A stretch of 64,000 bases of DNA from assembly GCF_046105845.1 (NCBI RefSeq), contig NZ_CP151004.1; one strand, 5' to 3'. This stretch comes from Escherichia coli. Its GTDB lineage: Bacteria; Pseudomonadota; Gammaproteobacteria; Enterobacterales; Enterobacteriaceae. The position numbers were made by a program, and so were the translations under genes. Below are positions 9,087 through 11,517 of the stretch, piece by piece. Positions within the stretch are counted from its first letter, which is position 1. The number at the start of each line of letters is the position of its first letter. A model generated the notes under the pieces. The model was not told where the DNA came from, did no database searches, and saw only the letters and a list, made by a program, of their open reading frames with translations.

Positions 9087-10517
9087 TTACAATAACCATT
9101 CCACAGGCAATATCGACGCCAGTCTGACCATAACCCGCTTCCAGAAACTGGTGGCGGGTTCTTTTTTGAGAATAATCTCTTTCTTTGCATGACGATCAAC
9201 CCAGTTGATCCGTCCCCACCTGTCCAGACGGAGCTGCCAGGCCGCATCATACTGGCTCTGAATAAAGCGTTTATCAATTAACTGTGCCAGCGTTTCGCTC
9301 TCTATCACGAAGCCCATTTCAGTATTGAGCAATGTCGAACGCGGATCGAAATTGAAAGAGCCGATAAACACCGTTTTACCATCGATGCTAAAGGTTTTAG
9401 CATGCAGGCTGGCACCGGAATTACCGGTTATGCCGCGATCGTGTAACGTACTACTTTGTTCACGCGTCGGCTTGAGTTCATATAATTCCACGCCGTAGCG
9501 GAGCAATTTTTTGCGCCAGCGCGCGTATCCGGCATGGACGACAGCAACATCGTTAGCGGCAAGAGAATTGGTTAGGATCGCAATCTTTACTCCTTTTCTC
9601 ACCATCCGTAAGAGTTGCGCCACACCTGCGCGTGTCGGTACAAAATAGGAAGAGATAATATCGATGCGTTCACTGGGTGAGCCCATGATATCGAACAGGC
9701 GCTGCGGTAACAGTGAATGCCGTTTTGCCTTGCCCTCCCCTTTCGCCGGATCATCACTTAATAAACGTGTCTTCGCCCAGATAAGCGGCAACGTTCCATC
9801 AACCAGATGATTTATAAACGGGCTGGATTCCATTTTGCGTAAATAACGATGCGTAATGGCATCGTTATGCCAGGAGGCGGGTAACTCGATGCGATCCGCC
9901 ATTTCACCTTCCGGGACATCCAGCACCTGCTGTAAGGGTGAAACCGATTTGCAATACCAGTAGCGGGCGAAATCATCGGCAACGTCCTCTACAACTGGTC
10001 CTATTGCCATGACATCTAAATCCGAAAAAAGTGGCTCTTCCCCTGCACCAAAATAGGCATCACCAATATTTCGCCCCCCTACCAGCGTCACCACGCCATC
10101 GACAGTGAAACTTTTATTGTGCATACGGCGATTGAGACGGGAAAAGTCGGTGATATAACCAAGCGGACGTAGCAAGCGAAACGAGAAAGGATTAAAAAGC
10201 CGGACTTCAATGCGGGGATGACTGTCAAGCAAGCGTAAAATGTCGTCAAGCCCGGGTGTATTGTTGTCGTCCAGCAACAAACGGACGCGAACGCCACGCT
10301 TTGCTGCGGCTAACAGGGCGGAAAACAGTAACCGACCCGACATATCGTCCTGCCAGATGTAATACTGAACATCCAGCGTATGCTCTGCCATTTCGGCCAG
10401 ACGATACCGGGCGGCAAACGCATCCAGACTTTTCTCCAGAGGAAAAAGGCCACACTGACCGGGATGTTGCGAACACAGTGGCAGCACCGCGCTCGCCAGC
10501 CGGGGCAAATCATTCAT
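9087..10517 (-). CDS. clsC: cardiolipin synthase C (phospholipase D family)
   Basis: Two HxK(x)4D-like PLD motifs (e.g. [18 protein letters not shown]); start placed at the Met overlapping the ymdB stop (476 aa); upstream in-frame Mets exist, so start is uncertain. Confidence 0.8.
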
Positions 10518-11043
10518 CTCCTTGTTGAGTAAGGAGTCTTTCGTAGAGGTGGGCGTTTTCTTCATCATAACAGACAAAGTATACCTGTTCGGGTAAAGCG
10601 TGACGGGTAATAAATTCTGAAACGGTTTTTACTGCGATTTCAGCCGCTACCGCACGAGGGTAACCATAAACCCCAGTACTAATTGCAGGAAAAGCCACTG
10701 ACGTATAGCTGTTTGCCGCCACCAGTCGTAGGCTATTGAGATAGGCATCCTGCAAAAGCTGGTCTTCGTTTTGTTCACCACCACGCCAGACTGGCCCGAC
10801 GGTGTGCACTACGGCTTTAGCGGGAAGATCGCCTGCAAGCGTAATAACGGCATGCCCCGTAGGGCAATCGCCCTGCTGTTGCCTGACTTTTAAACAGGCA
10901 TCCAGCAGCGCCGGACCCGCTGCGCGATGAATGGCCCCATCGACGCCGCCGCCTCCCATTAATGACGGATTAGCCGCATTCACAATCACATCAACGGCCA
11001 GTTTGGTAATATCACCCTGCACAACATGAATACGCGTTTTCAT
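10510..11043 (-). CDS. ymdB: macrodomain protein YmdB (O-acetyl-ADP-ribose deacetylase)
   Basis: 177 aa, macro-domain motifs ([19 protein letters not shown]). Confidence 0.85.

Positions 11044-11137: not shown

Positions 11138-11517
<380 letters not shown>

Follow-up and report, generated by a model that had tools for sequence, protein, structure and literature searches.

The gene clsC of Escherichia coli encodes a cardiolipin synthase and lies directly downstream of ymdB on the minus strand of a 64,000-nucleotide stretch of contig NZ_CP151004.1 (assembly GCF_046105845.1; here called the window) around csgBAC-ymdA-ymdB-clsC-opgC. The position of its start codon is annotated in conflicting ways. 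We lean, without strong confidence, towards a reading in which the 3′ end of ymdB also holds the overprinted start of clsC and two initiation routes exist in E. coli, neither of which is the ATG at 10517 that an initial annotation of the window had taken as the likeliest start. Route A, which would be ancestral in the Enterobacteriaceae, relies on a promoter within ymdB (−10 hexamer TATACT, 10583..10578) that would start transcription at G 10571. The resulting mRNA would begin 5′-GUUAUGAUG, with ATG 10568 (or 10565) 3 nt from its 5′ end and no Shine-Dalgarno sequence (SD), and leaderless-like initiation would give a ClsC of 493 or 492 residues. Route B, in the Escherichia/Citrobacter clade, would use AAGGAG (10523..10518) and TTG 10508 on the ymdB-clsC transcript to give a protein of 473 residues. 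In this second route the SD is predicted to be paired with CUCCUU (10536..10531), and ribosomes translating ymdB would open the structure and terminate next to the TTG. This would be translational coupling, with the site probably firing mainly when ymdB is translated.

The features on which the argument rests are the following.

10578..10583, minus strand: TATACT, a −10-like hexamer over YmdB codons Val154-Tyr155-Phe156, at −12 to −7 from the published transcription start site
10571, minus strand: transcription start site (TSS), a G, 3 nt upstream of ATG 10568 and 7 nt after TATACT (Romero et al. 2014, Table S2)
10563..10568, minus strand: ATG ATG pair, candidate near-leaderless starts of the forms of 493 and 492 residues
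10531..10536, minus strand: CTC CTT, YmdB Leu170-Leu171, the 5′ arm of a predicted hairpin pairing with the SD
10518..10523, minus strand: SD AAGGAG, over YmdB codons Gln174-Gly175-Asp176, separated by 9 nt from TTG 10508 and by 0 nt from ATG 10517
10515..10517, minus strand: ATG proposed by the initial annotation, 476 residues, 8-nt overlap ATGAATGA, annotated in 72 contigs, not conserved in lineages L098-L101
10506..10508, minus strand: TTG start of the curated K-12 record (NC_000913.3, b1046), 473 residues, 1 nt after the ymdB stop
10471..10494, minus strand: hairpin of 10-12 bp about 12 nt after the TTG, in the minimum free energy (MFE) and centroid structures of 111- and 146-nt folds (prediction only)
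10510..11043, minus strand: ymdB, a macrodomain O-acetyl-ADP-ribose deacetylase of 177 residues (open reading frame list, RefSeq, Pfam, NCBIfam)
9087..10568, minus strand: long form of clsC (493 residues and stop), called by the Prokaryotic Genome Annotation Pipeline (PGAP) in RefSeq strains; PLDc_2 twice; frame open in 28 of 31 lineages

A putative promoter and candidate upstream start codons within ymdB

We compared the junction DNA of 31 Enterobacteriaceae lineages in which ymdB abuts or overlaps clsC, together with Erwiniaceae, Hafnia and distant Proteobacteria. The 20 nt 5′ of the ATG pair hardly vary at the synonymous sites of YmdB and follow the pattern R-TATACT-ttgtctgyt-ATG. The hexamer itself matches TATAAT at five of six positions, with A2 and T6 both present (Yokenella has TATAAT), and its codons are written as GTA or ATA in 22/26 lineages, TAC in 23/24 and TTT in 21/25. 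A TSS near 1105515 was predicted from the conserved TATACT alone, before the table of Romero et al. was located. That table contains the entry FWD_(II)-1105515 (U00096.2 numbering), which is enriched by tobacco acid pyrophosphatase (TAP) and overlaps a RegulonDB TSS. When mapped on the K-12 sequence this coordinate falls on window position 10571, a G, with the ATG at −60 starting 3 nt further on. On this reading the TSS would reflect a working promoter, and its 3-nt leader would support initiation.

The arrangement TATACT-N9-ATG is retained in 25 lineages, four of which (L013, L019, L020 and L097) have a ymdB that no longer codes through TATACT. In L013 (Intestinirhabdus, 2296-2490) ymdB is a 65-codon 3′ fragment with a premature stop, and clsC is intact. 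In Phytobacter, UBA3516 and Yokenella (L019:2303-2500, L020:2316-2500 and L097:771-966) the overlap between the two genes has been resolved: a complete ymdB encoding 180 residues is followed by a spacer of 100-195 nt, whose far end, before clsC, is the decayed remainder of an earlier ymdB 3′ end. These remnants still carry TATACT or TATAAT, 8-9 nt and an ATG. L019 and L020 had been considered as a clean natural experiment for the long form, a case weakened by a TTG 10-12 codons before Arg3 that offers an alternative start and that PGAP uses in Phytobacter sp. AG2a.

Homology among ClsC proteins always begins at Thr/Pro2-Arg3-Leu4 (numbered on the form of 473 residues), which requires a start upstream of Arg3. 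The ymdB stop is followed in most genera by only 4 nt before the Arg3 codon. Between the ATG pair and Arg3 there is no ATG, GTG or TTG in Salmonella, Leclercia, Lelliottia, Cronobacter, Superficieibacter, Pseudenterobacter or Enterobacter ENT03. A direct check found clsC intact in Leclercia, Pseudenterobacter and Enterobacter ENT03, as well as in E. albertii, C. werkmanii, C. youngae, L013, L019 and L020. Where clsC is intact and no other canonical start is available, the upstream ATG must be the start.

The mere presence of an ATG cluster was rejected as evidence, since synonymous resampling of the YmdB sequence expects an ATG there (P ~0.9); only the TAT codon at Tyr159, the −10 hexamer and the open frame carry signal. 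YmdB Tyr159 is TAT in 21/21 lineages, which creates the first ATG (10568). The open clsC frame is not expected from YmdB codon choice (P=0.2-0.3 per species by synonymous resampling), yet it was open in 20/21 lineages in a first count and in 28/31 overall. Its openness hinges mainly on YmdB Leu171 being CTY when Thr follows, which avoids a TGA. CTY is found at this position in 13/14 lineages of the Escherichia/Citrobacter/Salmonella group, and among 55 control columns consisting entirely of Leu only two are as extreme, Leu171 being one, and both are within the overlap zone. The sole lineage with CTG ACC, L093, has the predicted in-frame TGA, while Cronobacter can use CTG because its next codon starts with G and no stop arises. 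Synonymous diversity is also lower in the overlap zone of ymdB (median ratio 0.65 vs 0.90, p=0.03), with the dip beginning 10-20 codons before the ATG pair.

Variation within E. coli (5423 genomes matched) was set aside as evidence, for it does not discriminate between the starts. Twelve Escherichia junctions were inspected, and the 10 of E. coli type (nine E. coli and the cryptic-clade L002) keep all candidate starts and the SD; the common variants are ACT/ACC, ClsC Pro2Leu and CGG/AGG. For the 37-nt junction core among E. coli there are ~705 records with one mismatch and ~200 with two. Six variant records that were inspected carry CCC to CTC (Pro2Leu; 10503-10505) and/or CGG to AGG (synonymous; 10500-10502). 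Residue 2 of the form of 473 residues is Thr in most other genera and hence unconstrained. The ClsC of E. fergusonii (L092) is ~81-82% identical to that of E. coli, as diverged as in Citrobacter, whereas E. albertii and the cryptic clade stand at 94%; comparison of the sequences suggests that the clsC locus of E. fergusonii was recombined or replaced. Its junction architecture is identical to that of E. coli.

The candidate stop-adjacent start and its exchange with the upstream route

The second route centres on TTG 10508. At this site the ten lineages of Leu type have TTG seven times, TTA twice and CTG once, while 46 all-Leu control columns from the same genes reach a maximum of six TTG. The neighbouring codons vary freely and synonymous sites are near saturation. 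By codon counts the TTG is over-conserved in the clade. Where E. coli has its TTG, the C. freundii group has an ATG, likewise separated from the ymdB stop by 1 nt; in C. werkmanii stop and start form a true ATGA overlap, with an in-frame TAA just upstream.

The SD duplex for TTG 10508 is calculated at −8.4 kcal/mol with an aligned spacing of 6, and ATG 10517 has no usable register. The upstream ATGs 10568 and 10565 lack an SD, the best upstream duplex (−2.8 kcal/mol) being located 5′ of the TSS. We also computed our own rough thermodynamic total in the style of a ribosome-binding-site calculator, which comes to +3.3 kcal/mol for TTG 10508, +5.5 for ATG 10568, +6.6 for ATG 10565 and +12.0 for ATG 10517. 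By this rough score all four starts are weak as autonomous sites. The downstream GTG 10487 was excluded as a start on its very poor score and because homology across distant Proteobacteria begins at Arg3.

The CUCCUU/AAGGAG hairpin appears in both the MFE and centroid structures at three fold lengths, with an energy relative to shuffled sequences of z −0.4 to −1.95, and would sequester the SD if it forms. A terminator scan found no terminator-like site between ymdB and clsC on the minus strand. On the plus strand a stem-loop with a T-rich tail (CTCCTTGTTGAGTAAGGAG TCTTTCG) at 10518-10536 is the antisense image of the SD/anti-SD palindrome in ymdB, and we suggest no function for it.

To follow the two routes across the family we defined element A as the combination of a good −10 hexamer, an open frame and an ATG located 3 nt past the TSS. 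Element A is intact in 23/31 Enterobacteriaceae lineages and lost in five lineages of the C. freundii group, Cedecea, Buttiauxella and L093. In each of these eight, a canonical start codon sits against the ymdB stop: five times ATG, twice GTG and once TTG. The 23 lineages that keep element A include none with a stop-adjacent ATG or GTG and six with a stop-adjacent TTG. E. coli is among those with both, having an intact element A and a TTG with a strong SD.

Gene products, annotation and competing readings

The families of the two proteins are confirmed. YmdB is placed among the macrodomain deacetylases by the Pfam family Macro (PF01661, E=2.7e-45) and by NCBIfam NF001660, which spans residues 1-177 of 177 at 374 bits (cut-off 271). 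The clsC open reading frame, 9087..10577 on the minus strand, is open throughout on direct reading. Its product, named cardiolipin synthase ClsC in RefSeq, matches Pfam PLDc_2 in two stretches (E=1.6e-40), and two HxKxxxxD (HKD) motifs, at residues 128 and 367 numbered from Arg3, are present in all nine related loci checked. According to papers citing Tan et al. (2012), the enzyme makes cardiolipin from phosphatidylethanolamine and phosphatidylglycerol. Some gene calls join Macro and phospholipase D (PLD) domains in one protein of 651-653 residues (P0016 and P0017 from E. coli, 651; P0024 and P0025 of Salmonella type, 653 and 652). A YmdB-ClsC fusion or programmed frameshift was rejected as their explanation: they are ymdB alleles frameshifted mid-gene, or assembly errors, in which the clsC frame runs back to the ymdB ATG. 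P0024 represents 28 member sequences, and some of these may be real ymdB-null alleles.

Public annotation of the clsC start falls into two conflicting streams. PGAP records in RefSeq, covering thousands of genomes, give 493 residues from ATG 10568, which shares 59 nt with ymdB in the +1 frame (ATG 10565 gives 492), while the curated K-12 record and UniProt give 473 residues from TTG 10508. Exact look-ups of public data found the forms of 473 and 493 residues in at least 1000 contigs each, that of 476 in 72 and that of 492 in 25. The ambiguity raised by the initial annotation is therefore real. That annotation counted three in-frame Met candidates, and exactly three in-frame ATGs exist (10568, 10565 and 10517); the codon at 10577, which it took as the upstream Met, is a TTG, the mechanical start of the open reading frame (496 residues) and upstream of the mapped TSS. 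Its list overlooked the in-frame TTG at 10508..10506. The small gene 5′ of ymdB, ymdA (11138-11449), is named inconsistently in RefSeq (loci L001-L003) as 'type 1 fimbrial protein', 'protein YmdA' or 'hypothetical protein', and its annotated start was undetected by the start-mapping method INRI-seq (0 / 5.5 / 0 / 0 / 0).

Three published start-site datasets bear on the candidates. In tetracycline-inhibited ribosome profiling (TetRP), an alternative ATG of clsC, there called ymdC, was recorded at −57, which is window position 10565, with depths of 0/30.1/16.1 against 0/0/5.7 at the TTG. INRI-seq is cell-free, and its synthetic clsC transcript starts 30 nt before the TTG, so that the SD, ATG 10517 and the TTG are included and the upstream ATGs are left out. 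The ymdB start is strong both in INRI-seq and in the same table's Ribo-RET values, which were obtained in vivo. Clones that include ymdB have been reported to give more ClsC 'by an unknown mechanism', while the title of a 2024 paper (Sawasato & Bogdanov 2024) states that the ymdB product is not required. A pBAD-clsC construct of the 473-residue type has served as the ClsC source in activity assays without ymdB.

Several observations weigh against two routes. INRI-seq gave zero initiation at the TTG in all five replicates despite an abundant transcript, and Ribo-RET also gave zero there; having neither ymdB translation nor the upstream ATGs, the INRI-seq construct is a proper test of neither route. 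The TetRP authors call ymdC 'not conclusive (5′ ORF)', the site lying inside a translated gene. Neither a clsC entry nor an N-terminal peptide was found in the supplements of TRAINSPOTTER and of Salmonella N-terminomics. The published TSS, mapped during exponential growth, belongs to class II, which has no leading edge; the −35 sequence CCGTCA has only three of six matches, and a promoter consensus scan gave no full sigma-70 match on the minus strand. A weak −35 is common for stationary-phase promoters, and the poor −35 accordingly lowers the promoter claim but does not remove it. A 3-nt leader is not strictly leaderless, and extra 5′ nucleotides are reported to lower leaderless translation. 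Species in which no stop could arise still have CTT at Leu171, and the bias of Tyr159 is equalled in two other Tyr columns; some of the synonymous signal could therefore have other causes. The SD hairpin is not significantly more stable than shuffled sequences and is not conserved outside Escherichia, and E. albertii has TTA in place of the TTG. Finally, loss of element A is associated with a stop-adjacent start at p=3e-6 (Fisher's test), but this reflects only ~3-4 independent events.

An alternative we consider unlikely, though it deserves serious attention, is that the TTG is the only start. ClsC would then have 473 residues, translated either from the internal TSS through a 63-nt 5′ untranslated region carrying AAGGAG and TTG or by coupled reading from the ymdB transcript, and the upstream ATGs would be unused in E. 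coli. Curated annotation, the best SD geometry, the best rough score and the over-conservation of the TTG all agree with this, as does the use of pBAD-clsC as a ClsC source. Moreover, the long frame has been lost twice (L008, L093) where a stop-adjacent start is present, which indicates that a proximal start is sufficient. However, such a model leaves TAT at Tyr159 and CTY at Leu171 in E. coli and its relatives unexplained, and genera that lack a proximal start must use the upstream ATG. E. albertii has lost both TTG and SD with clsC still intact, the TetRP signal is higher at −57 than at the TTG, and INRI-seq initiation at the TTG is zero. It is improbable, in our judgement, that the upstream conservation is unrelated to clsC initiation, arising from YmdB codon or context preference, RNA structure or another element, with the TSS marking a weak, spurious promoter inside a gene. 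In favour of this, TSSs of class II within genes are common, the −35 matches badly, an equal codon bias is seen in some unrelated Tyr and Leu columns, and CTT is retained where there is no risk of a stop. Nonetheless the element and its spacing to the ATG survive in the four lineages in which the ymdB frame is broken or a pseudogene, its loss coincides perfectly with the gain of a stop-adjacent ATG or GTG, and in at least seven of the genera studied an intact, conserved clsC lacks any other canonical start.

The remaining candidate is ATG 10517, where the initial annotation placed the start, within caaggagATGAATGA; direct reading confirms the codon at 10517..10515, the 8-nt overlap with ymdB and the product of 476 residues. 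The 3′ end of ymdB reads GGA GAT GAA TGA, with the stop at 10512..10510, and the ATG is a by-product of YmdB codons Asp176-Glu177 (GAT GAA). Ribosomes ending at the TGA, 5 nt downstream, would have to slip back and reinitiate without SD spacing, and we regard this as very improbable. AUG is the strongest start codon and the overlap is within reach of a terminating ribosome. All the Escherichia sequences examined (those of E. coli, E. albertii, E. fergusonii and a cryptic-clade strain) carry the ATG, as do L093 and L102. E. albertii and L102 have lost the TTG and have this ATG as their nearest start, and some annotators have picked it. Against it, no nucleotide separates it from the SD, and its rough score is worse than that of TTG 10508 by ~9 kcal/mol. 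The codon occurs in 6/10 Leu-type lineages, close to what the relative use of GAT and GAC would give and hence not beyond chance, and it is lost with GAC or GAG in the other four (L098-L101) with no sign of selection. L098, L099 and L100 lack it and keep the TTG, and L101 has TTA at the TTG site and a GTG four codons upstream. It is the sole possible start in none of the lineages compared. Neither TetRP nor INRI-seq flags a site at −9, although the INRI-seq construct included it. ATG 10517 is the least supported of the start candidates.

As to the coupling of ymdB and clsC proposed in the initial annotation, a cis link between ymdB and clsC expression fits the literature; the 8-nt overlap is not the conserved geometry. 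Conservation and ribosome footprints at the upstream Met had been named there as what would speak against ATG 10517, and they are largely found at ATG 10568/10565, given that synonymous sites are conserved, that a TSS is mapped 3 nt before the ATG and that TetRP depth at −57 is higher than at the TTG; they are not found at 10577.

Related systems and meaning of the junction

The junction resembles known systems of three kinds without matching any of them fully. As in termination-reinitiation coupling, ymdB and clsC are adjacent on the same strand, TTG 10508 lies 1 nt after the TGA with a gap conserved in the clade, Citrobacter has TGA-t-ATG and C. werkmanii ATGA, and the SD sits within the upstream coding sequence and is predicted to be paired. 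The E. coli start is, however, a weak TTG, and most genera have no stop-adjacent start.

Leaderless and short-leader mRNAs, of which lambda cI and Tn1721 tetR are examples, offer a second parallel. The clsC TSS is 3 nt before an AUG without SD, so a leader of <10 nt applies if the start is 10568, and the AUG is strictly required in that lineages with TTG in its place have acquired another start. In contrast to a leaderless mRNA, the candidate AUG is not at the very 5′ end, and promoter and start lie within another coding sequence. Romero et al. (2014) counted just five E. coli host mRNAs with leaders <10 nt; clsC was not among them because its annotated TTG start gives a 63-nt leader.

The third parallel is with overprinted gene ends that hold internal promoters. 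Here the two genes share 59 nt in the +1 frame, the clsC signals coincide with constrained synonymous sites of YmdB, and in L019, L020 and L097 the overlap was later resolved to leave a decayed ymdB 3′ remnant. Unlike such cases, the ~20 overlapped residues of ClsC show almost no amino-acid conservation, and the constraint falls on the −10, the ATG and the open frame.

ClsO of Acinetobacter baumannii, a ClsC-like outer-membrane lipoprotein cardiolipin synthase (PMC12846801), belongs to the same PLD-type family as ClsC, and distant ClsC homologs carry a ClsO-like signal peptide and lipobox. These homologs have a hydrophobic stretch, a lipobox L-[AST]-[GA]-C and a conserved ALPSLE-x-R motif ~20-25 residues before the equivalent of Arg3.

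L052, L056, L058, L061, L063-L065, L067, L069, L075, L078 and L082-L084, ~60-140 nt upstream of position 2501: ClsO-like signals

The carriers include Alcanivorax, Rubrivivax, Cupriavidus, Methylobacillus, Salinicola and Idiomarina, among others. E. coli ClsC and all its Enterobacterales relatives, by contrast, lack signal peptide and lipobox. A lipoprotein signal in E. coli ClsC (LPLC) was considered and rejected, since the lipobox is not valid and Cys12 (form of 473 residues) is not conserved in other genera; no E. coli ClsC N-terminus shows a hydrophobic core followed by L-[AST]-[GA]-C. Enterobacterial ClsC therefore looks like an N-terminally truncated, signal-less derivative, and the truncation may lie behind the evolutionarily labile start.

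Both route A and route B have their signals in ymdB DNA, which would make ClsC output dependent in cis on ymdB DNA and not on YmdB protein. The location of these signals suggests a reason for the higher ClsC from ymdB-containing clones. A bolder version, towards which we stop short of leaning and which we put forward tentatively, is that clsC is a conserved chromosomal near-leaderless gene with its −10 and AUG in the last 75 nt of ymdB, that the 'YmdB requirement' is purely cis, that E. coli makes proteins of 493 and 473 residues from two transcripts by two mechanisms, and that lineages repeatedly swap between them.

The choice of start governs construct design, antibodies, mass-spectrometry searches and structural models of ClsC. 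The question is one of annotation, yet it offers a cis mechanism that is cheap to test: if the clsC promoter and ancestral start lie in ymdB and the second start is stop-coupled, the question of a ymdB requirement becomes testable through YmdB-silent mutations. If true, a stationary-phase lipid enzyme with a conserved short-leader mRNA would make a helpful model, host-encoded mRNAs of this type being rare in E. coli, and the repeated swap of an internal promoter with leaderless start for a stop-adjacent coupled start would be an example of how overlapping gene ends evolve.

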